This document shows, in pieces, positions 106 through 16,433 of a DNA stretch of 64,000 bases. This DNA is from Burkholderiales bacterium RIFCSPHIGHO2_01_FULL_63_240 (GTDB lineage: Bacteria > Pseudomonadota > Gammaproteobacteria > Burkholderiales > Burkholderiaceae_C). Position numbers and translations under genes: made by a program. Numbering within the stretch: the first letter of the stretch is position 1; every line of letters begins with the position of its first letter. The notes under the pieces were generated by a model. That model had not been told where the DNA came from. It searched no databases and worked only from the letters and a program-made list of their open reading frames with translations. The stretch spans positions 108,924 to 172,923 of the forward strand of contig MERU01000007.1 of NCBI GenBank assembly GCA_001770725.1, written 5' to 3'.

Positions 106-257
106 CTTGGCTCCTGCGAGGGACGAGGGCACCCTGAGCGTCTGGCGTGCCCTTCACGGTGAGGCTATCGGCATGATGGCCGACCCTCTGAAGGGGAAAT
201 GCGCAAATAAGTCGCCCTTACCTGGCCGTTTGTGCGGGTGTTCCTACAATCCGCGCC

Positions 258-1784: not shown

Positions 1785-1813
1785 ACCCTCTCGTGCCCTG
1801 ATAGAAACCGACC

Positions 1814-2818
1814 ATGCCCCTGACCGCCGTTGCCCCTTCGTTCCGATCCACCCCGCGTGCCCTGGCCGCCAGCGTGTGCCTGGCGCTGGCCGCCAGCCTG
1901 GCCGCCCCCGCAGGCCAGGCCTGGGCCCGCGAAGGCGTGGAAGTCGACAAGCAGTCCTTCCTGGCGCGCCTGGTGCCGGCCGAGCAGCTCGAGCAGGCCG
2001 CGGCCCAGCAGTACCAGCAGATGGCCGTTCAGGCCCGCCAGCAGAACGCGCTGCTGCCTGACAACCACCCTCAGGTGATCCGCCTGCGCACCATCGCCAA
2101 GCGCATCATCCCGCACAGCCTGAGCTGGAACAAACGGGCCAATCAGTGGCAGTGGCAGGTCATCGCGATCAACTCCAAAGAGCTCAACGCCTTCTGCATG
2201 CCCGGCGGCAAGATCGCCTTCTACACGGGCATCCTGGAGCAGCTCAAGCTGACCGACGACGAGGTCGCCATGATCATGGGCCACGAGGTGGCGCACGCCC
2301 TGCGCGAGCACGCCCGCGAGCGCATCGGCAAGCAGTCGGCCACGCGCCTGGGGGCCAACGTGATCTCGGGCCTGCTGGGCCTGGGCGGGCTGGGCGACTC
2401 GCTGCTGAACATGGGCGGGCAGTTGCTGACGCTGACCTTCAGCCGCCAGGACGAGTCCGAAGCCGACCTGGTGGGCATGGAGCTGGCCGCGCGCGCCGGC
2501 TACAACCCGCAGGCCGGCATCACGCTGTGGCAGAAGATGGCCGCGGCCGCCAAGGGTGCACCGCCACAGTTCCTGTCCACCCACCCCTCGAGCTCGACCC
2601 GCATCCAGGACATCCAGGCCAACCTGCCCAAGGTGATGCCCTTGTTCGAGCGCGCGCCCAAGCCGCAGCAGCGTTGGGACGCACCGGCGCGTTCAGGCCT
2701 GAACACCGCCGATCCGCTGGAGCTGGCCTACTGGGGCCGTGGCGTGGCGACCCGCCCTGCGCAGACCGACCGGCTCGACCAGGGCGAACGCCGCGATCAC
2801 CACGATCACGGGCACTGA
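1814..2818 (+). CDS. M48-family zinc metallopeptidase (secreted or lipoprotein, LoiP/YcaL-like)
   Basis: Signal-like N-terminus, HEVAHALREH (HExxH) motif, a downstream E(A)D motif and STHPSSSTR. Confidence 0.85.
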   Translation: MPLTAVAPSFRSTPRALAASVCLALAASLAAPAGQAWAREGVEVDKQSFLARLVPAEQLEQAAAQQYQQMAVQARQQNALLPDNHPQVIRLRTIAKRIIPHSLSWNKRANQWQWQVIAINSKELNAFCMPGGKIAFYTGILEQLKLTDDEVAMIMGHEVAHALREHARERIGKQSATRLGANVISGLLGLGGLGDSLLNMGGQLLTLTFSRQDESEADLVGMELAARAGYNPQAGITLWQKMAAAAKGAPPQFLSTHPSSSTRIQDIQANLPKVMPLFERAPKPQQRWDAPARSGLNTADPLELAYWGRGVATRPAQTDRLDQGERRDHHDHGH

Positions 2819-2828
2819 GCCCGCGCCT

Positions 2829-4292: not shown

Positions 4293-4461
4293 TCTGTATG
4301 GAATGGTGGGCGGTTGACCAGCACAGATGGCGGCGCACACGACCGGCACAGTCCGCGCATGGGGGCGTCTGTGTGGGGGCGACCGGTGCCGGGCTGTGGC
4401 TGTCGGGGTGCGCAGTCGCGGCCTACCTTGGGTGGCCCGACCCGTGCCCGAGGAGGCCCCC

Positions 4462-4785
4462 ATGTCCCACCTGAATCGGCTGCCCGCCTTCGCCCTCATG
4501 ATGCGCCCCTTGCTGCGCGCCTTCCTGCGCCCCAAGCCGACCCGGGGGGCGACCTGCGTGAGCGCGACCCTGCCCGCCGGCCAGGCCGCCCGCCTGACGC
4601 TGCGCCGGGGTGAGACCCTGCTCGTGCGCCAGGGGCGCCTGTGGCTGACCCGCGAAGGTGACCCGGTGGACCATGTGCTGTGGCCGGGGACGGGCCACGT
4701 CGCCTCGGTGCCGCAGGAGGTGGTCATCGAGGCCTTCGGGCCCCAGGCCTGCAACTACGAGCGCCACCGCCTTCGGGGAGCGTGA
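4462..4785 (+). CDS. DUF2917-like small protein, divergent from the MocR regulator
   Basis: ATG at 4462 preceded by GAGGAGG. Sequence ...LRRGETLLVRQGRLWLTREGDPVDHVLWPG... matches the DUF2917 pattern as I recall it. Confidence 0.55.
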   Translation: MSHLNRLPAFALMMRPLLRAFLRPKPTRGATCVSATLPAGQAARLTLRRGETLLVRQGRLWLTREGDPVDHVLWPGTGHVASVPQEVVIEAFGPQACNYERHRLRGA

Positions 4786-4910
4786 TTCCGTTACGCATGT
4801 AAAAGGCGGGATTGCGCCTCATGAATGGGGCGCAGCGGTCGATAGCCTTCTGACCAACCATGCGTGTCTCCATAGGAAATGGGGTTGCGCCCGTCCCGAA
4901 GGAGATCATC

Positions 4911-6476
4911 GTGAATGCAATCAGGTCGGAAATGACCGTCACGGGCCGCCTGGCCCTGGGTTTTGGGGGCGTCACCCTCATCGGCTTGCTGATCGCCGCC
5001 ATCGCGGTGTGGATCATGCAGGACATGGGGAACCGGCTCGACACCATCGCCAAGGACCGCATGGTCAAGGTGGCGAAGTTCAATGAGCTCAAGGGCAACC
5101 TGAGCCTGATCGCGGCGGCGGCACGGGACATCCTGCTGTCCGAGGACCTCGGCTTCGAGAACGAGGCAAGCACCCGCATCCAGCAGCTGCGGGCCCGCAA
5201 CGCCGAGCTGATGGCCGAGCTGGACAAACTCGTGCTCATGCCCGGGGGGCGCGAGTTGCTCCAGGCGATCTCCGACAACCGGCCCGAATACAACCGCCTG
5301 ACCGATCAGGCGATCGAGCTGGACCGCAAAGGCCAGACCGCTGAGGCCGTGCTCATCTTAATGGTGCAGGCCAAGGAGAGGCGCCAGGCCATCTTCAAGG
5401 CGGTCGACGACTCCATCGCCATGCAGCAGGAAGCCACCCTGGCCTTGGTCACCGAATCACATCGTCAGGCCGGCATGGGCGTGATGGGCATGGTGCTGCT
5501 GGGCGTGCTGATGGCGGCCCTGGGCGCCGCCGTGACCTGGTTCACCGCGCGCAACCTGCGCCGTGCACTGGGGGCCGAGCCGCGCGAGCTGGGCGCCATC
5601 GCCCAACGCGTGGCCGACGGTGACCTGCATCCCATCGCCCATGGCCACCAGGCGCCGCAGGGCAGCGTGCTGGCCTCCCTGTCGGACATGCAGACCAAGC
5701 TGGCCACCATCGTCGGTCAGGTGCGCCACAGCAGCGAGAGCATCGCCACAGGGTCCGCCCAGATCGCCACGGGCAACGCCGACCTGAGCCAGCGAACCGA
5801 AGAGCAGGCGAGCAACCTGCAGCAGACGGCGGCTTCGATGGAGCAGATCTCCGGCACCGTGCAGAGCAACGCAGAAACCGCGACCGAGGCCAGCCAATTG
5901 GCCGGCGACGCGGTTTCGGCGGCCGAGCGCGGCGGCGCGCTGATGGGCAACCTGGTCTCGACGATGAAGGACATCTCGCTGGCTTCGGGCAAGATCTCCG
6001 AGATCATCGGCGTGATCGATGGCATCGCCTTCCAGACGAACATCCTGGCGCTCAACGCCGCGGTCGAGGCCGCACGGGCGGGCGAGGAAGGGCGTGGCTT
6101 CGCGGTGGTGGCAGGCGAGGTGCGCACGCTGGCGCAACGCTCGGCCGAAGCCGCCCGCGAGATCCGCACCCTGATCCACACCAACGTGGAGAAGGTCCGC
6201 CTGGGCGAGCAGCAGGCCGACGAGGCCGGCGGCTCCATCGGAGACATCGTCGGTCAGGTGCAGCGCGTCAATCAGATGATCGCCGAGATTTCGAACGCCT
6301 CGGCCCAGCAGGCCACGGGCGTGGGGCAGGTGGGCGATGCCATCACCCAGCTCGACCAGGTGACGCAGCAGAACGCTGCGCTGGTGGAGGAAAGCGCCGC
6401 CGCCGCGGAGAGCCTGCGCACGCAGGCGCACCGCATGGCGGAGATGGTCAGCGTGTTCAGGCTGGCTCAGGCCTGA
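4911..6476 (+). CDS. Methyl-accepting chemotaxis protein
   Basis: GTG at 4911 lies 6 nt after AAGGAGA. TM helix, periplasmic region, second TM helix, HAMP, and the conserved signalling hairpin ([41 protein letters not shown]). Confidence 0.9.
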
Positions 6477-6493
6477 TCGCCGATTGAGCCGTC

Positions 6494-7129
6494 TCAGCGC
6501 TTGAGGAAGGGGTTGAACCGGCGTTCTTCCCCGAAGGTGCTCTCGGGCCCGTGACCGGGCGTGAAGGTGATGTCGTCGCCCAGGGGCAGCAGGTGCTGCG
6601 TGATGGCGCGGATCAGGTCGCCGTGGTTGCCGCCGGGGAAGTCGGTGCGACCGATGCCGCCGTTGAACAGCACATCGCCCACGAAGGCGTGGCGCGTGCC
6701 ACCGTGGAAGAACACGACGTGGCCTGGCGTGTGGCCAGGGCAGTGCAGCACCTTCAGCGTCTGCTTGCCGATGCTGACTTCATCGCCATCGTGCAACCAG
6801 CGCGTGGGCGTGAAGGGCTCGGCTTGCGGAAAGCCGAACATCTGGCTTTGCTGGGGCAGGGCGTCGATCCAGAACTGGTCGCCTTCGTGGGGGCCGACGA
6901 TGGGCAAGGCCAGCGTGCGCGCCAGCGTGCCGGTGCCCCCCGCGTGGTCGATGTGGGCATGCGTCAGCCACAGCGCCTTGAGCGTCAGACCGCGCTCTTC
7001 GACGGCCTGCAGCAGCACGCCGATGTCGCCACCCGGGTCGATCAGGGAGGCCTCGTTGGTCTCGTCACACCAGACGAGGGAGCAGTTCTGTTCGAAGGCG
7101 GTGACGGGGAGGGTGAGGCGGTGGAGCAT
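6494..7129 (-). CDS. MBL-fold hydrolase (GloB/YcbL-like hydroxyacylglutathione hydrolase family)
   Basis: THAHIDHAGG metal-binding motif. Start placed at MLHRLTLPV (7129) because the 14 extra codons of the ORF are encoded by the AT-rich inverted-repeat element at 7141-7187. Confidence 0.8.
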   Translation of the reverse strand: MLHRLTLPVTAFEQNCSLVWCDETNEASLIDPGGDIGVLLQAVEERGLTLKALWLTHAHIDHAGGTGTLARTLALPIVGPHEGDQFWIDALPQQSQMFGFPQAEPFTPTRWLHDGDEVSIGKQTLKVLHCPGHTPGHVVFFHGGTRHAFVGDVLFNGGIGRTDFPGGNHGDLIRAITQHLLPLGDDITFTPGHGPESTFGEERRFNPFLKR

Positions 7130-7140
7130 GCCGTCTGCGT

Positions 7141-7187
7141 AGGAATCGGACAACAAAGTTTTAAAACTCAAAACATAGTCTCAAAAC
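7141..7187. repeat. Left terminal inverted repeat of the island
   Basis: AGGAATCGGACAACAAAGT + 20-nt insert + CTCAAAAC. The reverse complement of 13348-13375 is AGGAATCGGATAACAAAGTCTCAAAACC (18/19 plus 8/8 match). Confidence 0.6.
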
Positions 7188-7516
7188 GCTTTGATTTGAA
7201 ACGACTTTTGAGAGCGTAGCACTCTGTGGGCAGAGTGCCCATTCAAATGCGCCACTTCGGCCAGTGATCAGCCCCTTCCCGGTCAGATGGGATTTTCATC
7301 GGATGAAAGCGGGCTGAGGGCCTTTCCAGGCTGGGTGCGGTCATGCCCAGCTGACAGGCACCAAGCTCGTGTCACTGAACAGCTCGGCCACTGCGAGGCG
7401 AACCAAGGTGCATTGCTCCATTCTGGCCCGTCGCGAGTTGAGCAGGTCACAGCGACTTATCAAGATGCTGGGCATGACCTGGTCACCCTGACCGCCTGCC
7501 ACATTGAACATGTCAG

Positions 7517-7558
7517 CATCAAATAAAACGGGGCGTCCGTCTTGAAACGAACGCCCCG
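7517..7558 (-). terminator. Rho-independent terminator after rtcB
   Basis: On the minus strand, stem CGGGGCGT...ACGCCCCG is followed by GTTTTATTTGAT, immediately 3' of the rtcB stop. Confidence 0.7.
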
Positions 7559-7580
7559 GCTAGTGGGCACAATAGATCTG

Positions 7581-8798
7581 TCATCCCTTGACACACACCA
7601 CCTGCTTGAGCGTGTGCACCACATCGACAAGGTCACGCTGAGCCTCCATCACCGCATCAATGTCCTTGTACGCGGCCGGGGTCTCATCGATCACATCCTT
7701 GTCCTTGCGGCACTCGACGCCCTCGGTGGCCGTACGGTGGTCAGCCAGAGTGAAGCGGCGCTTTGCCTCGCCACGGCTCATGACACGACCGGCCCCGTGT
7801 GAGCAACTCTCGAAGCTCTCTGGGTTGCCCTTGCCACGCACGATGTAGCTGCGCGCGCCCATGCTGCCCGGGATGATGCCCAGCTGACCGGCCTTGGCGC
7901 TCACCGCACCCTTGCGGGTCACAAAAATTTCCTCGCCAAAGTGATGCTCGCGCTGCACGTAGTTGTGGTGACAATTCACGGCCTCGATGTGGCTTTGGAA
8001 GTTCTTGCGGATCACGGTCTTGGCAGCCTCGATCACGCGGCGCATCATCACCTCACGGTTGATGGCGGCGAACTTCTGCGCCCAGCCGACGCCGCGTACG
8101 TAGTCACCAAAGTAGCGGCTGCCTTCTTCGAAGTAGGCCAGATCGCGGTCGGGCAGGTTGGCGTTGTTGCGCATCGCATCTTGCTTGGCCAGTTCGATGA
8201 ACATGGTGCCAATGAAGTTGCCCACGCCACGCGAACCTGAGTGCAGCATGAACCACACGGCACCTTGCTCGTCCAGGCAGACTTCGATGAAGTGGTTGCC
8301 CGTACCGAGCGTGCCCAGGTGATTGCGGTTGTTGGTCTTGGCGATCTTGGGATAGTCGCGGCACAGTTCGGTGAACTCGGGCTCCAGTTGCGCCCAGGCC
8401 GTGTCGACCGAACCTGGCACCTTTTGCCAGGCACCTGGATCACGGTTGCCTGGTGCGCGACCATGCGGCACGGCACGTTCGATGGCGGCGCGCAGCGGGC
8501 CCAGGTTGTCAGGCAGGTCTTCAGCTGTCAGCGTGGTCTTGCAGGCCATCATGCCGCAGCCGATGTCCACACCCACCGCAGCCGGGATGATGGCCTTGAT
8601 GGTGGGAATGACCGAACCGACGGTCGCTCCGATACCAAAGTGCACATCCGGCATGGCTGCAATGTGTTTGAACACGACAGGCAGACGGGCCGCATTGATG
8701 AGCTGGCGACGGGCTTCGTCTTCCACGGGCACACCGCGCGTCCACATCTTCACCGGCACGCCACCAAGCGTGTCTTCTTCGATGTAATTCGTTTCCAT
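7581..8798 (-). CDS. rtcB: RtcB-family RNA 3'-phosphate/2',3'-cyclic-phosphate ligase
   Basis: 405 aa. Hallmark motifs AAMPDVHFGIGATVGSV, GCGMMA, GTLGTGNHFIE, HSGSRG and SCSHGAGR. Confidence 0.95.
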   Translation of the reverse strand: METNYIEEDTLGGVPVKMWTRGVPVEDEARRQLINAARLPVVFKHIAAMPDVHFGIGATVGSVIPTIKAIIPAAVGVDIGCGMMACKTTLTAEDLPDNLGPLRAAIERAVPHGRAPGNRDPGAWQKVPGSVDTAWAQLEPEFTELCRDYPKIAKTNNRNHLGTLGTGNHFIEVCLDEQGAVWFMLHSGSRGVGNFIGTMFIELAKQDAMRNNANLPDRDLAYFEEGSRYFGDYVRGVGWAQKFAAINREVMMRRVIEAAKTVIRKNFQSHIEAVNCHHNYVQREHHFGEEIFVTRKGAVSAKAGQLGIIPGSMGARSYIVRGKGNPESFESCSHGAGRVMSRGEAKRRFTLADHRTATEGVECRKDKDVIDETPAAYKDIDAVMEAQRDLVDVVHTLKQVVCVKG

Positions 8799-8862
8799 GA
8801 TTTATCTCATTCTTCCGTAAATGGAGGCGGCATGGCCGCCTCTGTGTAATGCCCTCGCTGAT

Positions 8863-10005
8863 CTAGGCCTTGAGCTTGACCAAGCCATTGAGGACCTGAT
8901 CCAGACCTCCGAACACGGAGATCTTGTCGATGCGCTCGGCAACACGCTCCAGCGTCTCCAGCTCCTTCATGCGCAAAGCGACAGGGTTGCCCTCCATCAC
9001 CTTGGCGGTGTTGAGCAAGGAACGCGTGGCAGCGGTTTCCTCACGGCGACGGATCACGTTGGCCTGAGCAGCCTTTTCGGCTTCAACGACTTGCGCCAGG
9101 ATGGTCTTCATCTCGCCGGGCAGTACGATGTCCTTCACGCCGGCTGTTTCCAGATCGATGCCATAAGCCACCAAGCGTGCCTTGACGTGTGCCATCACGA
9201 CCTCATCGATCACGGTCTTGTTCTCCAGCAGCTCATCGAGCGTGCGCGTACCCACGGCCGATCGCAAACCGAACTGCAGCTCACGGTACAGGTGTTCCGC
9301 GGGCTTTTGCAGCTGCGTGTAGGCCTTGAGTACATCGGTGAAGCGCCACGATGCCGACAGGTTCAGGCGCAGGCCGACCTTGTCCTTGGTGAGGATGTCC
9401 TGGCCGGACACCTCCACCACCTGCAGACGCAAGTCCACCAGCTCGACCGAAACGTTGCGGTTGTACTTCCAGAAGCCGTAAGAGCCCGGCTTCAGAAGCG
9501 AGTCCACCTTGCCGTCGACATGCAGCACGCCCACGCCGTACTCGGGCACCTGCACGGTCAGCACACCAATCAGACCAGCGACCTGGCGTTGACGCATCTG
9601 CGTCTGCGTCAGGCGCGCCACCAGTTCAGCAGGAAGCTCGGCGTGGTTGCTGATGTCCAGCACATCAACCTTGACCTCGTGCAGGCCCTTCCAGTACAGA
9701 CGGCGCGTGGTGGGCGCCAGCAACTCAACCAGTACACCGTTCTCATAGCGCAAGCCCACCTCGGTTTCCTTGAGGTCGACGCGCACGAACTCGGCTTCCA
9801 CCACAGCAGGCTCCTTGGCCATCAAATAGTCGGCCAGGCCGTGCGCGAAGGCGGACTGCTCCAGCGAGAATGTCTCGACACGCACATCGCTCAGTGCCGT
9901 GGCCAGCCAGTGACGGCCAGGCTGCAGCACGCGCTCGAAGTCGCCATTGCGCAGCAGCAGGCCACGCTCGTTCTTTTTGACAGTGAAACGTTTGAATCCC
10001 AACAT
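8863..10005 (-). CDS. SPFH/band-7 (slipin-like) protein with a ~200-aa N-terminal extension
   Basis: Start MLGFKRF at 10005 preceded by AAGGAGAAG. The C-terminal half carries an SPFH core and a coiled region (VVEAEKAAQANVIRRREETAATR...NPVALRMKELETLERVA). Confidence 0.8.
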   Translation of the reverse strand: MLGFKRFTVKKNERGLLLRNGDFERVLQPGRHWLATALSDVRVETFSLEQSAFAHGLADYLMAKEPAVVEAEFVRVDLKETEVGLRYENGVLVELLAPTTRRLYWKGLHEVKVDVLDISNHAELPAELVARLTQTQMRQRQVAGLIGVLTVQVPEYGVGVLHVDGKVDSLLKPGSYGFWKYNRNVSVELVDLRLQVVEVSGQDILTKDKVGLRLNLSASWRFTDVLKAYTQLQKPAEHLYRELQFGLRSAVGTRTLDELLENKTVIDEVVMAHVKARLVAYGIDLETAGVKDIVLPGEMKTILAQVVEAEKAAQANVIRRREETAATRSLLNTAKVMEGNPVALRMKELETLERVAERIDKISVFGGLDQVLNGLVKLKA

Positions 10006-10240
10006 GGGCTTCTCCTTCTTGTTTGTATGAGGGTGCCGATACAGCACTGGCTGCGGACAAGGAAGGCCTTGGCTCAGGCATGGCGGATTCGCGGTGTGTC
10101 TTCCTCCCAGATCGACACGTCGCTTGGCCACCTGCGCGAGCCACGCGTTTTCCTTGCACAAGCCACCAGCGCTGACAGATGGCAAGCCATCTGCGTTCGG
10201 CGGAGGTCTTTCGACCGGCTTTTTGGCAACCTTCGCAGGG

Positions 10241-10314
10241 TTGTTGGTACGGGAATCGAACCCGTGACAGACGCATTACAAGTGCGTTGCTCTACCCGAC
10301 TGAGCTAACCAATG
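10241..10314 (-). tRNA. tRNA-Thr(UGU)-like, with non-pairing 1:72 and 2:71
   Basis: Hand fold: D arm GCTC/GAGC, anticodon arm ACGCA-CTTGTAA-TGCGT, T arm ACGGG-TTCGATT-CCCGT. Acceptor CATTGGT/ACCAACA pairs at only 5 of 7 positions. No encoded CCA. Confidence 0.6.
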
Positions 10315-10516
10315 GGTGGCTGCTTGGGAATCGAACCCATCACCGTTGCCGGCGCTGACCACAGACAGCCCAATCAACCGTTTCCAACAGACGCGGCATG
10401 CACCGTGACAACAGGCTTGAACCTGGCCACAGCGCACCGGCGGGGCGGGCTTTCACCCAAACCCCTGACCTGTGAGCGCCCGCCTTTCACGGCAGACTCT
10501 TTGGCGCTTGAACCTC
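10313..10516 (-). ncRNA. Structured non-coding segment ending in a tRNA-like 3' module (T-arm + acceptor strand + CCA)
   Basis: 3' end reads ATGGG-TTCGATT-CCCAA-GCAGCCA-C-CCA (10313-10340). Internal T-arm-like hairpin CAGG-TTCAAG-CCTG (10412-10425). Two GTGAAAG hairpins. No local 5' tRNA half; the only complement (GTGGCTG) is at 10553-10559, inside the HNH 3' end. Confidence 0.3.
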
Positions 10517-11092
10517 TCAGTTCAAGCGCGATCCTTTTGGCAGGCGCGAAGCCAGCCACTCGTGTACATCGGCCCGGATGTGCCTGCCTTGCAGCAGGAA
10601 GTCTTCGAATCGACTGGGCACATAGGGCAGGTACAGCAATGGCATGCGGGCTTCCTCTGGCGTGCGGTTGGCCTTGGCAGCATTGCAGCCAGGGCAGGCC
10701 GTCACCAGATTCATCCACGATGTGGCACCGCCCCGAGAGGCCGGCACGATGTGCTCGCATTGCAGTACGCCCTCAGAGAAGCGATCACCGCAGTAGGCAC
10801 AAACACACCGGTCACGCCGAAAGAGCTTCAACCTGTTCAGCGACGGCGCAACCTCAAACAGGTTGATGCGCGAAGCGCCGTTGAGCGCCATGATGGGGAA
10901 GATTTCCATCACGGACGGGCGACCCGTTCGGGCATTGACGCCGCCCCGCAGACGGCGCAGCGGTCCGTCGCCGTCGACCCATGCCACCGAGGCACTGGCC
11001 AGATGGATGGCGGCCTGTTCGACCGTGATCCAGGCTTGTGGCGTGCCTTGAATGTCCAGTTGCAGGACATGCGTTGAGGTACTCGGTGACAT
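10517..11092 (-). CDS. HNH endonuclease (McrA/COG1403-like, ~191 aa)
   Basis: Start MSPSTS at 11092 follows AAGGAGGG by 6-7 nt. HNH core CAYCGDRF...CEHIVPASRGG..WMNLVTACPGCNAAKANRTPEEA. Confidence 0.85.
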   Translation of the reverse strand: MSPSTSTHVLQLDIQGTPQAWITVEQAAIHLASASVAWVDGDGPLRRLRGGVNARTGRPSVMEIFPIMALNGASRINLFEVAPSLNRLKLFRRDRCVCAYCGDRFSEGVLQCEHIVPASRGGATSWMNLVTACPGCNAAKANRTPEEARMPLLYLPYVPSRFEDFLLQGRHIRADVHEWLASRLPKGSRLN

Positions 11093-11119
11093 GGGGAGCC
11101 CTCCTTTCATGGGCAGGTG

Positions 11120-11272
11120 TCAGTGCATGGTGTCGTTGGATCGGCGCAGCTCACGCTTGAGGCGTTGCCGCTCTTGCTTGTTGTTGGGTTGATGATTGCC
11201 TGCTTTGCGTTGCATGGCAGGGGCGACGAGTGGGTTCCTCGGCTTGGAGGTGCCCCGTTTGGGTGTTCTCAT
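11120..11272 (-). CDS. Hypothetical 50-aa highly basic peptide upstream of the HNH gene
   Basis: ATG at 11272 follows AAGGGA. Sequence MRTPKRGTSKPRNPLVAPAMQRKAGNHQPNNKQERQRLKRELRRSNDTMH. No homology recognised; could be non-coding. Confidence 0.3.
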   Translation of the reverse strand: MRTPKRGTSKPRNPLVAPAMQRKAGNHQPNNKQERQRLKRELRRSNDTMH

Positions 11273-11306
11273 GACAAGATCCCTTGCGAACGCGTGGCGG
11301 AACGAA

Positions 11307-11383
11307 TGGCGTCTCGTACGGGAATCGAACCCGTGTTCCGACATTGAAAGCGTCGTGTCCTAGGCCAGCTAGACGAACGAGAC
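11307..11383 (-). tRNA. tRNA-Glu(UUC), CCA encoded
   Basis: GTCTCGT-TC-GTCT-AGCTGGCCTA-GGAC-A-CGACG-CTTTCAA-TGTCG-GAAC-ACGGG-TTCGATT-CCCGT-ACGAGAC-G-CCA. Resembles bacterial tRNA-Glu (TTCGTCTAG...GGAC). Confidence 0.9.
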
Positions 11384-11433
11384 GTAGATGGCTGTGGCTT
11401 CAATCACGCCAGTAGTCATGGCGTTGGCTGCCG

Positions 11434-11642
11434 TCAAAAGCAGCCCGATGTCAGGCAACAGCGCTTGAAATGATTTGGTCGATCCGCAAGGGCATGGGTC
11501 GTTGCGTCCCAGCTTCTCGTGCAGGTACTTGTCACCATGCACGATGCGCTGACCACGCTTGACGCCTGTCTCAGACGGATAGCCCTTACGACGCTTGCTC
11601 GTGACCTCGAAAGCAAGCCTGTTCTTGGCGGTTGAATTTCAT
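11434..11642 (-). pseudogene. Small SEC-C-motif protein gene disrupted by two +1 frameshifts
   Basis: RBS AAGGAG plus ATG at 11642 opens an 18-codon frame. The next frame reads ...[55 protein letters not shown] third frame finishes [10 protein letters not shown]. Removing one A from an AAA run and one T from a TTT run restores a 68-aa ORF. Confidence 0.55.
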
Positions 11643-11725
11643 TTTTGACTCCTTGTTGAGTTGCCCCTGTGAACGGCCAGGTGCCTACCGGATGACAGCG
11701 ATATGCGATGCCCAATGCGCTTGGG

Positions 11726-11796
11726 GGTGACCGGCCGGAGTCGAACCGGCACCATCGGAATCACAAACCGAGGCTCTGCCATTGAGCTACGGCCAC
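11726..11796 (-). tRNA. tRNA-His(GUG)-like lacking the encoded G-1
   Basis: GTGGCCG-TA-GCTC-AATGGCA-GAGC-C-TCGGT-TTGTGAT-TCCGA-TGGT-GCCGG-TTCGACT-CCGGC-CGGTCAC-C. Nucleotide -1 is T. The trailer is CCCAA, with no exact CCA. Confidence 0.75.
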
Positions 11797-11826
11797 ACCC
11801 AAGCGCACTGGGCGTTGAAATGGTTG

Positions 11827-11899
11827 TCTCGGAGGACGGGTTCGAACCGCCGACCTGATGCTCCCAAAGCACCCGCGCTACCAACTGCGCTACACCGAG
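11827..11899 (-). tRNA. tRNA-Pro(UGG)
   Basis: CTCGGTG-TA-GCGC-AGTTGGTA-GCGC-G-GGTGC-TTTGGGA-GCATC-AGGTC-GGCGG-TTCGAAC-CCGTC-CTCCGAG-A. C1-G72 and A73 as in bacterial tRNA-Pro. One U-U mismatch at 6:67. No encoded CCA. Confidence 0.8.
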
Positions 11900-11906
11900 A
11901 AACAAC

Positions 11907-11984
11907 TGGCGCCTCCTGCACGACTCGAACGTGCGACCCCTGGCTTCGTAAACCAGTGCTCTGAATCCACTGAGCTAAGGAGGC
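11907..11984 (-). tRNA. tRNA-Arg(ACG), CCA encoded
   Basis: GCCTCCT-TA-GCTC-AGTGGATTCA-GAGC-A-CTGGT-TTACGAA-GCCAG-GGGTC-GCACG-TTCGAGT-CGTGC-AGGAGGC-G-CCA. Confidence 0.9.
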
Positions 11985-12002
11985 AAAGCTGCAGAAACTG
12001 AT

Positions 12003-12078
12003 TGGTGCCGCAGGAGGGATTCGAACTCTCGACGCCCGGCTCTTCAGGCCGGCGCTCTACCAACTGAGCTACCGCGGC
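12003..12078 (-). tRNA. tRNA-Phe(GAA) with G37, CCA encoded
   Basis: GCCGCGG-TA-GCTC-AGTTGGTA-GAGC-G-CCGGC-CTGAAGA-GCCGG-GCGTC-GAGAG-TTCGAAT-CCCTC-CTGCGGC-A-CCA. A-C mismatch at 52:62. Position 37 is G. Confidence 0.8.
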
Positions 12079-12092
12079 ATGGGAATAGGTTG

Positions 12093-12168
12093 TGGCGCTT
12101 CGTGCGGGAGTCGAACCCGCGGCTTCCGGCTAGACAGGCCGGCACTCTGGCCACTGAGTTAACGAAGC
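12093..12168 (-). tRNA. tRNA-Asp(GUC) with U37, CCA encoded
   Basis: GCTTCGT-TA-ACTC-AGTGGCCA-GAGT-G-CCGGC-CTGTCTA-GCCGG-AAGCC-GCGGG-TTCGACT-CCCGC-ACGAAGC-G-CCA. Anticodon stem is identical to the neighbouring tRNA-Phe. Confidence 0.8.
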
Positions 12169-12401
12169 AAGGTATCCACTTCGGCTGTGCCCAAGCGCGA
12201 GCACTCATGGACGGCAGTCCAGAGTCGATGTCTCGCTGCATGTGGATCCGGGCCCGGACCACACACATCCCTTGCCACCGACACCAGCGTTACGCGTGTG
12301 ACTCGGAGTGCAAGGACACACCCGAAGTGGAGCGAACGGCGAACCATTCGCTACTTGTGCGAAATGTCTGCTTGCGTGTAGGCAAGACATCTCGCGGCAA
12401 A

Positions 12402-12414
12402 TTGTTAAAGAGCG
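12402..12414 (-). promoter_or_regulatory. rrn-type boxA (NusB/NusE antitermination element) in the leader of the tRNA array
   Basis: The minus strand reads CGCTCTTTAACAATTT. The E. coli rrn boxA, as I recall it, is TGCTCTTTAACAATTT. Confidence 0.65.
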
Positions 12415-12429
12415 ACACCTGTGAGGTGC

Positions 12430-12447
12430 GGCGATCCGTTGATCGCC
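12430..12447 (-). promoter_or_regulatory. boxB-like hairpin just upstream of boxA
   Basis: Minus strand GGCGATC-AACG-GATCGCC is a perfect 7-bp stem, 15 nt 5' of boxA. The boxB-then-boxA order matches rrn leaders. Confidence 0.5.
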
Positions 12448-12480
12448 AGGGTGCGTAACGAGCACGCAGTGAAGGTGGTG

Positions 12481-12523
12481 AGGAAAAGCGAAGAGGCCCG
12501 GATCCTTTTGGAATCCGGGCCTC
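12481..12523 (-). terminator. Intrinsic terminator or attenuator between the 66-aa ORF and the boxB/boxA leader
   Basis: Minus strand GAGGCCCGGAT(T)CC-AAAA-GGATCCGGGCCTC is followed by TTCGCTTTTCCT. Confidence 0.55.
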
Positions 12524-12553
12524 TGCTTGAGAGAGCTAGGAGGGGCGTGCGCC

Positions 12554-12754
12554 TTACGCGTCAACGACTCCCTCACCCGGTTGCACCTGATCCTCATGTC
12601 CACGGATGTACGCATCCCGCTTGGCATGGGATGGTTCAAACTGGAACGCGATCAAGCACGGGCGGCTGCCATACAACATCGCGGCAGCCGCACGCACGAA
12701 CGCGCTCTGGCCCATGAGGGGCAGGCGGTTGGTGGTGTTCAGTCTGGATTTCAC
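12554..12754 (-). CDS. Hypothetical 66-aa protein, divergent from the HTH regulator (Cro-like position)
   Basis: GTG at 12754 lies 6 nt after AAAGGA, and the ORF is followed by the hairpin terminator. No family recognised. Confidence 0.4.
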   Translation of the reverse strand: MKSRLNTTNRLPLMGQSAFVRAAAAMLYGSRPCLIAFQFEPSHAKRDAYIRGHEDQVQPGEGVVDA

Positions 12755-12835
12755 GATGTGTCCTTTGAAAATCTGCGTCAGTTGTTTGGTTTGATCTAGC
12801 CAAGCTTCATCTCGAAACTTGACAATGGATGAAAT

Positions 12836-12852
12836 GGTAAAGACTCTTTACC
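12836..12852. promoter_or_regulatory. 17-bp perfect palindrome (candidate operator)
   Basis: GGTAAAGA-C-TCTTTACC, in the divergent intergenic region. Confidence 0.45.
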
Positions 12853-12883
12853 GAGCTGTCAACGCCCTGCGACAATGGTGCTA

Positions 12884-12900
12884 TTGCCAATTTGTGGCAA
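12884..12900. promoter_or_regulatory. Palindrome TTGCCA-N5-TGGCAA abutting the regulator ATG (candidate operator)
   Basis: TTGCCAATTTGTGGCAA, whose last A is the A of the ATG at 12900. GACAATGG also occurs twice, 50 bp apart (12821 and 12871). Confidence 0.4.
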
Positions 12901-13286
12901 TGCTCACACCAGCCATCTTGAACAACATCACCGTGACACGCCGGCGTAACGCGCTGGCGCTATTCCAAAGCTTTGCAGAAGAAGCCTTGGCTTCGGGCAC
13001 GCCTCCCAAAGGGCTGGAGCAATCGTTCGCGCAAAAGCTGGAAATTTCCCCCAGCATGTGGAGTCAGATCAAGTCGTCCAGGCCTATCGGCGACAAGATG
13101 GCCAGGCAGATTGAACAGCACTGCATCAAGCCACCTGGGTGGCTTGATGAAGAGAGGGAGAGCGTCGGTCTCACGCCAGCGGAGCAACAGTTCCTGGCAT
13201 TGGCCTTACAGGCGTGGCGGTCCACTAACACGGCTGGCCGCAAGGCATTGCGTGAGCACCTTAAGAGCAGCTTGGCCAAGACCTGA
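12900..13286 (+). CDS. Phage-repressor-like (Cro/CI, XRE-type) HTH regulator
   Basis: ...FAQKLEISPSMWSQIKSSRPIGDKMARQIEQHCIKPPGWLDE is a typical XRE HTH plus the GWLD tail. An alternative TTG start at 12819 would place two palindromes inside the coding sequence. Confidence 0.7.
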   Translation: MLTPAILNNITVTRRRNALALFQSFAEEALASGTPPKGLEQSFAQKLEISPSMWSQIKSSRPIGDKMARQIEQHCIKPPGWLDEERESVGLTPAEQQFLALALQAWRSTNTAGRKALREHLKSSLAKT

Positions 13287-13347
13287 CGGCCCACTCGGTG
13301 CAGACCTAAATGAATACAAAAGACCTTCAGCAACCTCCCTAGGCACC

Positions 13348-13375
13348 GGTTTTGAGACTTTGTTATCCGATTCCT
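13348..13375. repeat. Right terminal inverted repeat of the island
   Basis: GGTTTTGAGACTTTGTTATCCGATTCCT is the reverse complement of the 7141-7187 element, allowing one mismatch and one 20-nt indel. Confidence 0.6.
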
Positions 13376-13426
13376 CTTCGTGGAGGTGAAATGACGTGGG
13401 GGGCGTACCGCCGCAGCCAGCGTGGG

Positions 13427-15619
13427 TCAGGCTGGTGGTGGATGGCTGAGCCACTTGAGCAAGGTCGCAAAGAGCTGGGCGCGATCGATGGGCTTGGCGA
13501 TGTGGTCGACCATGCCTGCAGCCAGGCAGAGCTGTTTGTCTTCCTCGAAGGCGTTGGCCGTCATGGCAAGGATGGGCGTGGCCTGATTGAGCCCACCGCC
13601 CAGGATCGCCCGCGTGGCGTCCAGCCCGTTGAGATGGGGCATCTGCATGTCCATCAGGATGAGGGCATAGCGGTTGCGGCGGGCCAGCTCGACGGCCTGC
13701 TCACCGTCTTCGGCCAGGTCGACCGTCAGCCCGACGTGCTCCAGCAGGCACCGCGAGACTTCCTGGTTGATGGGCTCGTCCTCCGCCAGCAGGACCTTGG
13801 CGGAGGCAAACCGCTGCCGCAGTTGGGCCTCGTCCGATGACTGGGCGAGTGGGGGCGTCGGTGCAAGCGATGTCGCGTCGGCTGGCGCCTTGTCGAGCCT
13901 CACGGTGAACCAGAAGGTGCTGCCTGAGCCCGTCTGGCTCTGGACCCCGATGTCCCCGCCCATCAGCCGCACCAGACGCTTGCTGATGGCCAGCCCGAGC
14001 CCGGTGCCGCCATACCTGCGGGTCATGGAGCCATCGGCCTGCTCGAAGTCCGTGAACAGCTTTGCCTGGTCTTCCGGGGCGATGCCGATGCCGGTGTCGA
14101 TGACCTCCCAGCGCAGCAGCAGGTCTTTGTCCGTGTCCTCCGCGATGCGGCAACGCAAGGTGACGTGGCCCTCCTGCGTGAACTTGATGGCATTGCTGAC
14201 CAGGTTGAGCAGCACCTGGCCGAGTCGAGTCGGATCGCCTGTGACACGGAGGTCGCCCAGGCCGGGGGAAAGGTCCACGCGCAGGCGCAGCCCCTTTTCC
14301 GTCGCCTTGTGACCAACGATGGTCAGCAGGTGGTCCACGACCTCCCTGATCTGCAAGTCCACGCGCTCCAGCACGAGGCGTTCGGCTTCGATCTTGGAGA
14401 TGTCGAGGATGTCGTTGATCAGGTGCAGCAGGTGCTGCGAGGCCTTGTCCGCCTTCTCGAGGTAATCGCGTTGCTTGGGATGGGTGGCGAGGTGCAGGGC
14501 CAGGCCGGTCATGCCCATGATCCCGTTCAAGGGCGTGCGCAGTTCGTGGCTCATGTTGGCCAGGAAGGTGCTCTTGGCGCGGCTGGCGGCTTCGGCGGCG
14601 TCCCTGGCCTGGATCAGTTCCAGCTTGGACAATCGCAACTCGGTGTTCGATGTTTCCGCGGCGTCCTTCGCGGCCTGCAGTTCGGCCGTTCGTTCGTGCA
14701 CAAGGGCCGCCAGGTGCTGGTGATAGGCCTGCAGCTCGATTTCAGCCAGGTTGCGTCGGTGGGCGTACTGAGCCAGCAAGAGCATCGGCCCCACGCTCAG
14801 CAGGAGCGCCAGCGCAAACCCGAGCCGGATGGTCCAGGTTTGGCCTTGGTCGTCGGGCCACCCGCCGCGAGGCCTCGCCGCGATCTGCCACGAGCCAGTG
14901 GGCAGGGTGATGGGCAGGGTCACGCCCTGGCCGGCAAAGAGGGTCGGGTCGCCGTGGAACACCTCGCCCTGCTCGCCTTTGCCATCCTTGCCGCGCAGGG
15001 CCACCTCGATCGGCAGGCTGTCGTCGTGCAGCCCGCTTTGTTGATACAGGCGATCGACCTCGAGGACGACGGACAGCAGCCCCCAGAAGCGGCGACCTTT
15101 CTCACCTTCGTCGAGGGTGACGGGGATGCGGGCGATCATGCCCTTGCCGCCTTGAACCAGGTCAAGGGGACCGGCGATGACGAGGGAGTTGGTGTCGCGG
15201 GCCAGTTCGGCGGCGGCCCGCTGGGCGGGGTTGCGGGCGTACTCGAGGCCGATCACCTTTTCGTTGCCGGCCAGGGGGTACACCAGGCGCACCACCATGT
15301 CCGGGGCCGCAGCGATGCTGCGCAGCACGTTGGGGCCTTCGAACAGGGGTTTGGCCGCCCTCTCGAAGTCACGTTGGGTCAAATCGGGTTTGGATGCGAT
15401 CACGGCCACCAGGCCGCGCGAGAGCAGGATGTTGCCGGTCAACTGGCTTTCGAGCCGGGCCTGCAGGATGAGCAGGTGTTCGCGCACCTGGGTCTCGGCC
15501 TCCACGCGCAGCGTGTGCTGGCGTTGCCGCTCGACGAAATAGGCTGCCAGCACCAGCACCACGGCTGTGGTGCATGCCGCCAGGACAATCTGCCAGACCC
15601 CTTTGTAGCGAACATGCAT
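13427..15619 (-). CDS. Hybrid sensor histidine kinase/response regulator with a periplasmic CHASE-like domain
   Basis: Start MHVRYKG at 15619. TM helix, CHASE-like region, second TM helix, coiled coil, HisKA ([16 protein letters not shown]), HATPase (GTGLGLAIS), and C-terminal REC ([10 protein letters not shown]...DMQMPHLNG). Confidence 0.9.
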
Positions 15620-15740
15620 CCGAGAGACCTCAGCCAGGAACCCGCCGTGATGGACCAAAGTCCATTCTAAGACTTGGGTTATCGGTCAGGGCTGATTTTT
15701 CGCGACGTCACCTCGGGGTGCGGCGCGGCTGAGACATGCG

Positions 15741-16433
15741 TCAATGCAGGAACCGGTAGCCCACCCCGACTTCGGTCAGCAGGTGCCTGGGCATCGACGG
15801 GTGGGCTTCGACCTTCTTGCGCAGGTTGGCCATGTGCACGCGCACGTAGTGGCTGTCTTCGGCGTGCCCTGGGCCCCAGACCGCCTTGAGCAGTTGGCTG
15901 TGCGTGATGACGCGGTCGGGCTGGCCCGCCAGGTAGGTCAGCAGCTTGTACTCGATGGGCGTGAGGTGCACGACTTCGCCACGCCGTGTCAGCTGCCGCT
16001 TGACGAGGTCGAGCTCCAGGTCGCCAAAGGCGATGAGGCTGTCGCCGTTGGGTGCTTGGTGCAGGTGCCGCCGCAGCTGAGCCCGCACGCGCGCCATGAG
16101 CTCGCCCGCGCCGAAGGGCTTGACCAGGTAGTCGTCCGCGCCAGCATCCAGGGCTTCGATCTTGTCGGTCTCGGCGCTGCGGGCCGACAGCACGATCACG
16201 GGTGTGGTGGACCAGTTGCGAAATTCGCGGATGAAGGTCACGCCATCGCCATCGGGCAGGCCGAGGTCGAGCACCACCAGGTCGGGCCTGCGCGTGCCGG
16301 CTTCGATCAGGCCGCGCCGCAGGGTGTCGGCCTCGTGGACTTCGTGGCCCTCGGTTTGAAGGGTGAGGCGAACGAAGTGCCGGATGGTCGGGTCGTCCTC
16401 GATGACCAGGATGTGGGCGTGCAGCTCGCTCAT
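15741..16433 (-). CDS. kdpE: KdpE response regulator (OmpR family)
   Basis: REC plus winged helix, overlapping the kdpD stop by 4 nt. Confidence 0.9.
   Translation of the reverse strand: MSELHAHILVIEDDPTIRHFVRLTLQTEGHEVHEADTLRRGLIEAGTRRPDLVVLDLGLPDGDGVTFIREFRNWSTTPVIVLSARSAETDKIEALDAGADDYLVKPFGAGELMARVRAQLRRHLHQAPNGDSLIAFGDLELDLVKRQLTRRGEVVHLTPIEYKLLTYLAGQPDRVITHSQLLKAVWGPGHAEDSHYVRVHMANLRKKVEAHPSMPRHLLTEVGVGYRFLH

Follow-up and report, generated by a model that had tools for sequence, protein, structure and literature searches.

A low-GC island of a Burkholderiales bacterium joins a supernumerary tRNA array unit to a Band-7/SPFH-RtcB RNA-repair operon

The 64-kb stretch of DNA analysed here (contig MERU01000007.1 of Burkholderiales bacterium RIFCSPHIGHO2_01_FULL_63_240, positions 108,924 to 172,923; hereafter the window) carries a 6.2-kb low-GC island between positions 7141 and 13375 that is a composite operon, made up of an L-type tRNA array unit and a Band-7/SPFH-RtcB RNA-repair operon. 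L-arrays are long runs of supernumerary, horizontally transferred tRNA genes (PMC8421152). In the island the array module consists of a CI-like repressor, an operator within a sigma-70 promoter, a leader open reading frame (ORF), a terminator, a boxA, six tRNAs, a SEC-C gene and an HNH gene, and the second module is an SPFH-RtcB operon with a ∼440-nt structured RNA. The island is a horizontally acquired insertion. On balance, and with moderate confidence, we read it as a regulated operon of spare tRNAs and RtcB, which would respond to damage of translation or of tRNAs by replacement and religation. All positions given below are those of the window, and features lie on the minus strand unless stated otherwise.

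The composite nature of the operon follows from a survey of 80 Burkholderiales genome loci that encode relatives of the island SPFH protein and were typed by gene layout (L-numbers denote fetched loci or contigs). The full fusion, with divergent regulator, tRNA array (1–20 genes), HNH, one single 'tRNA' and SPFH, is present in 30 of the 80 loci, most of which have rtcB after SPFH, and shortened versions of this layout occur on further contigs. The regulator is found without array or HNH in three loci; in L027, the one of these that was examined, a leader ORF, a terminator and a boxA-like element stand directly upstream of the RNA-SPFH-RtcB unit. SPFH-RtcB without any upstream module accounts for ∼22–28 loci, mostly from Acidovorax and its relatives. 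The Acidovorax locus L047 has the layout divergent rtcR (RtcR CARF and sigma-54 AAA+), TGGCAC-N5-TGGCA promoter, RNA, SPFH, RtcB and RtcA. The array module in turn exists without SPFH and RtcB on the conjugative megaplasmid RPME01 of Methylibium petroleiphilum PM1, where a regulator 61% identical to that of the island heads the array, followed by boxA, 27 tRNAs and an HNH gene with 64% identity; the terminator stem-loop of this plasmid module differs from that of the window only in its loop. Plasmids of Polaromonas and Variovorax carry HNH genes that are 64–68% identical to the island HNH, and on the Polaromonas plasmid hypothetical genes, a stretch without listed genes and a small ORF lie upstream of it. 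Since each module is found alone, they are separable, and the island fuses them. Within the island the promoter and terminator scan revealed no other strong promoter or terminator between 12483 and 7558.

The foreign character of the island is visible in its composition. GC content drops from ∼0.69 to 0.58–0.62 over positions 7000–13500 and is 0.595 in the island (7172–13426) versus 0.693 in the rest of the window, so that a preliminary description of this DNA, in which GC was judged by eye, was right in placing an AT-richer block between high-GC genes. The lowest GC content of any 6.25-kb stretch of the window outside the island is 0.673, and GC at third codon positions (GC3) amounts to 0.71–0.80 in island genes versus 0.86–0.90 in the flanking genes, which by Pfam encode a metallo-beta-lactamase-type (MBL) hydrolase and a CHASE hybrid kinase. 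Two 27-nt inverted repeats delimit the block: the left one (7141–7167) lies beside the start of the MBL gene and the right one (13349–13375) beside the stop of the kinase gene, 24 of the 27 positions being complementary. Their outer ends, 7141 and 13375, fall exactly at the insertion borders and coincide to the nucleotide with the borders proposed beforehand. The hexamers just outside the repeats, ACGAAG and ACGCAG, are identical in five of six positions and may represent a target-site duplication; the empty site described below has diverged at the same place.

A natural empty site, the search for which in relatives had been suggested by the preliminary description, is present on the metagenome contig L097 (at 7915–7978), where only 60 nt separate the kinase gene from the MBL gene, with no tRNA and no RtcB. 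The kinase and MBL orthologues of L097 share 83% and 97% amino acid identity with those of the window, and its flanks are 84–87% identical to positions 68–7135 and 13420–18121. The inverted repeats are missing from this empty site and are therefore the ends of the inserted DNA. Islands with identical proteins occupy this locus on at least seven metagenome contigs. Islands with ∼91% identity are found in unrelated contexts in the Aquabacterium genomes L014, L015 and L078, and in L011 an island with 92% identity is framed by flanks with just 77–81%. By these comparisons the window stems from a species of Aquabacterium. A block conserved at this locus with host-like composition, which would have spoken for a core region, is incompatible with these other contexts and with the foreign GC and GC3 values. 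The inverted-repeat sequence occurs only in contigs of the window species and had no match in any other fetched locus, and neither the ORF list nor Pfam revealed a recognisable transposase or integrase in the island.

The array module is headed by a conserved control region. The scan detected one good sigma-70 promoter, at 12834–12862 (–35 TTGACA at 12857–12862, –10 TACCAT at 12834–12839; 10 of 12 matches), and the palindrome GTAAAGAGTCTTTAC is located between –35 and –10 (12837–12851). This arrangement is shared by 33 of 34 loci: a –35 element TTGAC(G/A) and then the palindrome GTAAAGA(C/G)TCTTTAC, reaching into the –10 element. The divergent repressor-like gene (12900–13286, plus strand) encodes 128 amino acids from the ATG at 12900, the longest ORF starting from a TTG at 12819; its divergent orientation is kept in ∼35 loci. 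The product matches phrog_12107 'transcriptional repressor' (E 2.6e-8) and weakly the phage CI structure 7nkv of the PDB, and it has no Pfam domain. In the sampled repressor-bearing loci no RtcR was present at the operon. The regulator would repress the promoter at GTAAAGAGTCTTTAC. The gene order given in the preliminary description, with everything except this one regulator on the minus strand, could be traced feature by feature.

Downstream of the promoter follows a leader ORF (12554–12754) of 66 codons with a GTG start and an AAGGA ribosome-binding site. Its start context AAGGA-N6-GTG and its C-terminus xEDQVxPGEGxx-stop are conserved, and the middle of the peptide is poorly conserved. The distance from the ribosome-binding site and GTG to a conserved CCGGG, measured by a frame-blind pattern between the start context and CCGGG, is divisible by three in 26 of 27 loci, which comprise 14 different lengths between 111 and 192 nt. 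Since the frame is kept over 14 lengths, translation of the leader ORF is under selection. From the leader stop to the terminator, 27 of 31 loci have a distance of 29–36 nt. The candidate attenuator region (12483–12582) comprises the motif AACCGGG (12576–12582), a hairpin H1 with the leader stop codon in its loop, a hairpin H2 (12521–12535) and an intrinsic terminator (12483–12524), a strong hairpin with a T-run and one of two strong terminators in the scan, both on the minus strand. This region folds with a z-score of –4.6. In the alignments the terminator reaches 97.4% pairing, five of its pairs covarying, and the motif A(U/A)CCGGG within the ORF can form a 7-bp pairing with the left arm of the terminator (90.3% paired, 8 double-change cells versus 3.0 in shuffled alignments). 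Covariation was measured on plain MAFFT alignments, here and for the RNA elements described below; H1, H2 and the acceptor stem of the tRNA-like module 1 were judged by eye.

Leader-peptide attenuators of the trp, his and pheA type and the boxA antitermination of rRNA operons are textbook systems. As in these attenuators, the island has a short ORF that ends at an intrinsic terminator and a putative competing upstream pairing. However, the island leader contains no obvious run of regulatory codons, and it would control tRNAs and an RNA ligase instead of biosynthetic enzymes. We regard leader ORF and terminator as a candidate translation-sensing transcription attenuator, which would open when ribosomes lag. 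A correspondence between leader codons and array tRNAs was considered as well: ∼14 of the last 30 codons of the window copy stand for Asp, Phe, Arg, Pro, His or Glu, which was judged too weak. The boxA (12402–12413; GCTCTTTAACAA / GCUCUUUAACAA) is preceded by hairpins at about 12414–12482. With GCUCUUUAACAA the window matches the boxA consensus exactly, in 12 of 12 positions of the rrn consensus; 25 of 34 leaders have a boxA with at most two mismatches, and a boxA is found on the Methylibium plasmid, too. In full arrays it is located 72–74 nt before the first tRNA; in arrays that no longer have their first tRNAs, that of the window among them, the distance is greater. By analogy to rrn antitermination, boxA would protect a long untranslated transcript from Rho. 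Purifying selection clearly acts on operator, leader ORF, candidate attenuator and boxA.

ARAGORN and Rfam identified seven tRNA-type genes, all on the minus strand, and no others in the window. Five form a block at 11724–12168 with Rfam scores of 60–67 bits, namely tRNA-Asp(GUC) (12093–12168), tRNA-Phe(GAA) (12003–12078), tRNA-Arg(ACG) (11907–11984), tRNA-Pro(UGG) (11826–11899) and tRNA-His(GUG) (11724–11796); the sixth, tRNA-Glu(UUC), lies at 11307–11383 (54.4 bits). Of the seven-gene array announced in the preliminary description these six genes remain, and the supposed seventh, tRNA-Thr, belongs to the structured RNA of the second module. The six tRNAs are a reduced form of a shared ancestral order Gly-Glu-Asp-Phe-Arg-Asn-Ile-Pro-His-Lys-Leu-Met and so on; homologous arrays in genomes have as many as 20 genes, and the Methylibium plasmid has 27. 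Since the array content varies between 1 and 20 genes among relatives, the six array tRNAs are probably not the sole copies of their isoacceptors. In L026 a canonical tRNA-Phe is encoded 3 kb outside the array on the same contig, so that the array copy is redundant there. By these comparisons the array tRNAs are accessory and supernumerary.

Nearly all tRNAs have a purine at position 37, and the canonical counterparts of the array tRNAs have A37. The array tRNA-Phe copies have G37 in common, on chromosomes as well as on the plasmid, the tRNA-Phe outside the array in L026 having A37. The array tRNA-Asp has U37 in most copies examined and C37 on the Methylibium plasmid. The atypical position 37 of array tRNA-Phe and tRNA-Asp, seen in the window, L026, L091 and other arrays, recalls phage tRNAs with changes in the anticodon loop, for which an evasion of anticodon nucleases has been proposed (PMC10264068).

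A mini-gene and the HNH gene complete the array module. The SEC-C zinc-motif mini-gene (11434–11642; SEC-C motif E 1.7e-5) contains a slip site UUU-C at 11467–11470. The two reading frames seen in the preliminary description proved to be a common property, as a +1 shift at UUU CAA(G/A) is required in 12 of 13 loci (the window, L018, L019, L025, L026, L034, L038, L041, L053, L078, L080 and L088) to complete the motif CPCGSxKxFKRCC, which continues as KRCCLxSGCF-stop; only L020 is in frame. Where codons vary among the loci, the share of synonymous changes upstream of the slip site is 0.66 in frame A versus 13% and 8% in the other frames, and downstream of it 0.68 in the +1 frame versus 25% and 15%. 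Judged by these patterns, the +1 frameshift is conserved and probably programmed. An additional break, at UUU CGA, lies farther upstream in the window copy, which may be in partial decay. At the textbook programmed +1 sites of prfB (CUU UGA C) and Ty1 (CUU AGG C) the P-site codon re-pairs in the +1 frame and a slow codon comes next, and a similar course is conceivable here: tRNA-Phe would move from UUU to UUC in front of CAA, a codon that should be rare where GC3 is ∼0.9. The slip site is a candidate reporter of tRNA-Gln(UUG) supply. It differs from prfB and Ty1 in that a Shine-Dalgarno-like GAGG is present upstream in only some SEC-C loci and in that the predicted product is a SEC-C peptide of ∼36–70 amino acids. 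Between tRNA-Glu and HNH lies a candidate gene for a small, very basic protein (11120–11272, 50 codons), which is 88–96% conserved in Aquabacterium-type loci only, plus 70% in L087, and had no family match in Pfam, PADLOC and PHROG searches.

The HNH endonuclease (10517–11092; Pfam HNH_5, E 9e-14) has its counterparts in the array-linked HNH proteins of the Methylibium, Polaromonas and Variovorax plasmids (64–68% identity). It is also similar to the HNH protein encoded beside the 24-tRNA array of Anabaena on pCC7120delta (44% over 78 amino acids, BLASTP E 3e-21), and homologues with 38–43% identity are found in jumbo and other phages. In the window the HNH stop lies within ∼50 nt of the RNA domain of the second module, with no promoter or terminator between them.

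The non-coding stretch from the HNH stop (10517) to the SPFH start (10005) contains structured elements between 10476 and 10032 that form an RNA of ∼440 nt, conserved in array-type and RtcR-type loci. The preliminary description had noticed ∼200 nt of structured RNA with a tRNA-like end, and both the structure and a tRNA-like module are indeed present. What it had taken for an N-terminal extension of the SPFH protein is, in contrast, conserved structured RNA, the start being ATG 10005 and not TTG 10185. The RNA begins with domain A (10372–10476), three hairpins that start at a conserved CUCACAGG, fold with a z-score of –2.15 and in Acidovorax follow the sigma-54-type promoter. Next comes the tRNA-like module 1 (10313–10371), a mini-cloverleaf with acceptor stem, GNRA-type hairpin, T arm and ACCCA tail, which is present in array-type and RtcR-type loci and shows covariation in its T arm. 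It is followed by the seventh 'tRNA' (10239–10314), called tRNA-Thr(UGU) by ARAGORN and scored with 58.8 bits by the Rfam tRNA model (10241–10314). This element is a Band-7-associated tRNA-like RNA (b7a-tRNA) and not a spare tRNA. A 40-pair consensus over domain A, its long hairpin included, and both tRNA-like modules contains 25 pairs with compensatory change.

The b7a scaffold is kept in nearly all loci, including those without an array. In the 70-odd loci aligned on the T loop it has D and T arms with hardly any variation, an acceptor stem of 3–5 bp (∼5 bp in the window) and no 3' CCA; in two relatives the match to the Rfam tRNA model is limited to model positions 4–67 or 5–66. On this scaffold the anticodon is hypervariable. 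The 37 loci with a 7-nt loop have ten kinds of anticodon, and about a dozen more loci, in which the parser had added one closing pair and which were inspected by eye, add ∼10, giving ∼20 in total. Near-identical copies from Aquabacterium vary at position 34 (UGU, AGU and CGU), with CAG in one copy, and U33 and a purine at position 37 are mostly retained. In ∼19 loci, mainly of the RtcR type, a GNRA tetraloop replaces the anticodon loop. Inspection of the typed loci revealed no pattern by which the b7a anticodon would complement or duplicate the array content at the same locus. A free-standing hairpin resembling an anticodon stem-loop (10228–10242, loop CUGCGAA) comes after b7a; such a hairpin with a 7-nt loop is present in 24 of 72 loci. 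Its loop mostly conforms to YU-NNN-RA, and its 'anticodon' varies even among close relatives (GCG, ACC and ACG in Aquabacterium).

Between b7a and the SPFH ribosome-binding site, the SPFH 5' leader forms a three-way-junction RNA (10032–10218) with a P1 GNRA hairpin (10205–10216) of the form GGUC-GNRA-GACC, a closing helix GCCG/CGGC, a variable hairpin and a long arm. For the window sequence the minimum free energy is –95.7 kcal/mol (z-score –5.1), and the three-way architecture recurs in independent folds of 14 divergent sequences. In an alignment of 25 sequences the 58 pairs are 94.4% paired, compared to 33–45% in slid controls, and compensatory change affects 33 pairs versus 18.6 after shuffling, or 157 cells versus 44.7. 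A search of the window and two relatives with Rfam 15 returned tRNA hits only, besides sub-threshold matches to YrlA and mascRNA and chance hits; an assignment of the ∼440-nt RNA to the YrlA family was rejected, as the tRNA-like modules reach 20–26 bits versus a gathering score of 69. In E. coli STEC639 (CP061233.1, L095:4680-4998) a sigma-54-type promoter and a shortened RNA with domain A and T arm precede a slipin with 57% identity, downstream of which a gene with a nucleotidyltransferase domain is located. Since this slipin is accompanied by a reduced RNA, the association of RNA and SPFH extends to Enterobacteria.

The SPFH/Band-7 protein ('slipin'; 8863–10005, 380 amino acids from ATG 10005; Pfam Band_7 E 7e-29) has a stomatin-like region at residues 188–376 and, judged by eye, no obvious membrane segment. 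More than 7900 homologues exist, which are called slipin in the source naming. An AlphaFold2 model, calculated from a shallow alignment of 23 sequences with at least 78% identity, reached a mean predicted local distance difference test score of only 46.8 and a predicted template modelling score of 0.31, and was left unused. In most of the 80 Burkholderiales loci SPFH adjoins rtcB; in the window both genes are co-oriented with a gap of 64 nt. Relatives may have further genes between them, namely a Ro60/TROVE-vWA gene (L035:9167-10762), a gene with a PNKP-type phosphatase domain (L064:9150-9629) or genes for NfeD/ClpP-like serine proteases (L021:9197-10225 and similar), and proteases of the latter type are classical SPFH partners.

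The rtcB gene (7581–8798) encodes an RNA 3'-phosphate/2',3'-cyclic-phosphate ligase that covers the complete Pfam RtcB profile (1–426 of 426, E 5e-128) and corresponds to phrog_1075. The identical protein is encoded on 15 metagenome contigs. Sealing of 2',3'-cyclic-phosphate/5'-OH ends is the established activity of RtcB. The operon ends 23 nt after rtcB with an intrinsic terminator (7519–7558, placed by the scan at 7529–7558; 13-bp stem, 9 GC pairs, T-run), at about which the similarity to other Aquabacterium islands begins. The ∼350 nt between this terminator and the left repeat (7168–7518) have no counterpart in the other Aquabacterium islands; positions 7326–7359 resemble the rtcB-internal segment 7859–7892 (76%) and are perhaps a decayed gene fragment. 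RtcA was not found after rtcB: the stretch 7172–7518, to the ORFs of which Pfam was not applied, holds short ORFs only, and the terminator comes 23 nt after rtcB. Neither RtcR nor a sigma-54 promoter was detected in the island, the sole regulator being phage-repressor-like and a TGGCAC-N5-TTGC element upstream of domain A not being seen by eye. In L034, L041, L053, L082 and L086 a second, divergent RtcB paralogue (54–55%) lies between array and HNH, at about 5630–6900 in each locus and at about 3230–4420 in L082; locus typing detected no rtcB of the 72–99% type downstream of SPFH in these five loci. PADLOC offers no family for RtcB, SPFH or the regulator and matched only the generic HNH domain (PtuB, Cas9-like), and we do not regard such HNH-only matches as evidence for a known defence system. 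Neither IMG/VR nor GenBank phages yielded anything close to SPFH or to the cassette; IMG/VR contained one distant SPFH match (29%).

Both modules have been described before. A repair system of Band-7/SPFH protein, tRNA-like RNA and RtcB was reportedly set out by Burroughs and Aravind in Nucleic Acids Research in 2016, with a scaffold or cofactor role proposed for SPFH and RNA. A preprint attributes to that work an association of Band-7, b7a-tRNA and RtcB and adds that the b7a RNA is sometimes swapped with Ro60/YrlA (Burroughs & Aravind 2016, as cited in bioRxiv 10.1101/312249). The island likewise has SPFH directly upstream of rtcB and a tRNA-like RNA before SPFH. However, RtcR, RtcA and a sigma-54 promoter are lacking, control lies with the upstream tRNA-array module, and with ∼440 nt the RNA is far larger than one tRNA-like unit. 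In the window type, a repressor and a translation-coupled attenuator seem to have taken the place of the RtcR sensor. In Salmonella, rsr-yrlBA-rtcBA encodes Ro60, tRNA-like Y RNAs and RtcB/RtcA under the control of RtcR (PMC7790460). There, too, an RNA that mimics tRNA is encoded between regulator and ligase, but Ro60 takes the place of SPFH, the island RNA stays below the YrlA threshold, and the regulation differs. An SPFH gene is also present within the rtc locus of Pseudomonas aeruginosa (PMC13086221), and E. coli rtc is induced by colicin D and VapC (PMC7790460).

A close parallel to the array module, and to the gene set as a whole, comes from cyanobacteria. In Anabaena the L-array, the HNH gene beside it and rtcB stay silent until translation is inhibited (PMC8421152). 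TrcR represses this trn array, and in a trcR mutant rtcB, HNH endonucleases and a slipin family protein are upregulated more than eightfold (PMC10272220). HNH, rtcB, slipin and array, the partners of the TrcR regulon, are the gene set of the island, and in both cases a same-strand supernumerary array stands beside a gene of the HNH_5 type (all8564 in Anabaena). The Anabaena genes are scattered over plasmid and chromosome and joined by a ribbon-helix-helix repressor and direct repeats, whereas the island is one operon; HNH is located downstream of the array in the island but upstream in Anabaena. TrcR acts via direct repeats over the –10 box, and the island regulator is CI-like with a palindromic operator, the two being set apart by description. 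A same-strand tRNA run, horizontally spread supernumerary genes and a linked HNH, which characterise L-type arrays (Santamaria-Gomez et al. 2021), are all found in the island.

The island is a fusion of two known kinds and not a categorically new system. Spare tRNAs and a ligase in one regulated, acquired cassette, as put forward in the preliminary description, is still the best-supported reading; its statement that the combination cannot be assigned to a described system has to be given up, since the Band-7/b7a-tRNA/RtcB system and HNH-linked L-arrays are both described, and tRNA-Thr no longer counts among the spare tRNAs. In the literature searched, which did not include the 2016 source paper, or in Rfam we found no operator of this kind, no attenuator with boxA, no ∼440-nt RNA, no hypervariable anticodon and no +1 frameshift, and the same literature contained no mention of the three-way junction or of an insertion bounded by inverted repeats with a natural empty site. 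A described case of an attenuator followed by boxA before a tRNA array was likewise not found in the literature searched.

Building on the homology, anatomy, conservation, covariation and insertion described above, we propose a working model for co-transcription, inducing signals, attenuation and biochemical roles. The promoter would be held off by the repressor. If a ribosome follows the leader ORF through to the stop codon, it would cover AACCGGG, so that the terminator forms and transcription ends. If translation is impaired by depleted or cleaved tRNAs or by ribosome inhibitors, the ribosome would lag and AACCGGG could pair with the left arm of the terminator, leading to read-through. By recruiting Nus factors, boxA would then allow the untranslated array to be transcribed without Rho termination. 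The transcript would supply spare tRNAs, two of them with an atypical position 37, and subsequently the tRNA-like RNA, SPFH and RtcB. RtcB would reseal 2',3'-cyclic-phosphate/5'-OH breaks in tRNA or rRNA, and SPFH and the tRNA-like RNA may serve as scaffold or cofactor.

Several points weigh against this model. The single transcription unit is deduced from spacing and from the absence of internal signals, and the redundancy of the six tRNAs from relatives. The excess at third codon positions is confined to the C-terminal 14 codons of the leader, and its N-terminal and middle parts show no such bias, so selection may act on translation itself and not on the peptide. The core of the antiterminator, with its five GC pairs, is invariant; only the two flanking pairs covary, each being unpaired in 8–10 of the 31 sequences. 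The regulator is CI-like and not a ribbon-helix-helix protein as the cyanobacterial TrcR. Finally, the array of the window is a six-gene, reduced remnant with an extra frame break in the SEC-C gene, so that parts of the operon may be decaying. A more far-reaching form of the model, in which we place little trust, would make the island a self-contained device for surveillance of tRNA damage and replacement, equipped with three sensors coupled to translation: the attenuator would read decoding speed, the SEC-C +1 slip would report a shortage of tRNA Gln-UUG, b7a as a bait shaped by an arms race and SPFH would present broken tRNAs to RtcB, and the array tRNAs with unusual position 37 would be nuclease-resistant.

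The most interesting reading, a sharpened form of the hypothesis in the preliminary description that is compatible with the data and yet on the unlikely side in our view, is a dedicated counter-defence against exogenous anticodon nucleases such as colicin D/E5, CdiA-CT, PrrC/RloC-like enzymes or phage-triggered tRNases, in which resistant isodecoders, b7a and hairpin decoys and resealing by RtcB would act together. It would account for ∼20 anticodons on one b7a scaffold, where position 34 shifts among near-identical copies and U33 and the purine at 37 are mostly kept, for the free hairpins with anticodon-like 7-nt loops and variable triplets, and for G37 in array tRNA-Phe and U37 or C37 in array tRNA-Asp on chromosomes and plasmid. 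Evasion of anticodon nucleases via the anticodon loop, proposed for phage tRNAs (PMC10264068), and the induction of E. coli rtc by colicin D and VapC (PMC7790460) point in the same direction. However, PADLOC has no match for RtcB, SPFH or the regulator, the island contains no toxin or immunity gene, and the Anabaena counterpart answers ribosome-targeting antibiotics and not nucleases alone. Moreover, the variation of the anticodon could reflect relaxed constraint, because RtcR-type loci have a GNRA tetraloop instead.

The remaining explanations regard the array as a passenger or as part of the core genome. A selfish, cryptic mobile tRNA array might have landed by chance upstream of a resident SPFH-rtcB pair, as the array module occurs alone on plasmids, its content decays fast (1–20 genes), the island ends in inverted repeats, homing endonucleases spread phage tRNA clusters (PMC8421152) and L-arrays elsewhere in bacteria are reported to be poorly transcribed. 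We consider this improbable: ∼30 genomes from many genera share the ordered fusion, no promoter or terminator separates HNH and RNA in the window, operator, leader ORF, candidate attenuator and boxA are under purifying selection, and in repressor loci without RtcR, as well as in L027 with its leader but no array, SPFH-RtcB would depend on the promoter of the array module. An origin as prophage or phage remnant, with phage tRNA cluster, repressor, homing endonuclease and phage RtcB, could be read from the phage repressor families matched by the regulator, the 38–43% identical HNH homologues in phages and the assignment of RtcB to phrog_1075. It is very improbable, given that integrase, structural and lysis genes are absent from the island, that IMG/VR has no close SPFH relative, that the array unit resides on a conjugative plasmid and the cassette in many chromosomes, and that the ends are inverted repeats and not direct repeats of the att type. 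The idea of an ordinary housekeeping tRNA operon of the core chromosome could draw on the resemblance of the boxA leader to rRNA operon leaders and on the normal scores of the six tRNAs, but it is contradicted by the empty site, the foreign composition, the variable content and the redundant tRNA-Phe in L026, and we attach practically no credence to it.

Next to the island the window encodes a KdpD/KdpE-type two-component pair (15741–16433 and upstream) besides the CHASE hybrid kinase; no sign of a link between these neighbours and the island was seen.

The regulated operon of spare tRNAs and RtcB favoured here bears on the question of what bacterial RtcB, the SPFH proteins of rtc loci and 'cryptic' long tRNA arrays do. 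It offers experimental handles in the candidate attenuator, the ∼440-nt RNA that accompanies every SPFH-RtcB operon examined, the tRNA mimic with its hypervariable anticodon and the +1 site. Such loci are tractable, as cultured relatives carry them (Acidovorax, Variovorax, Methylibium and Aquabacterium fontiphilum) and a natural empty site is available as comparator. The presence of one operon with legible control in many Burkholderiales supports the view that translation damage is answered by one response comprising both spare tRNAs and RNA ligation.

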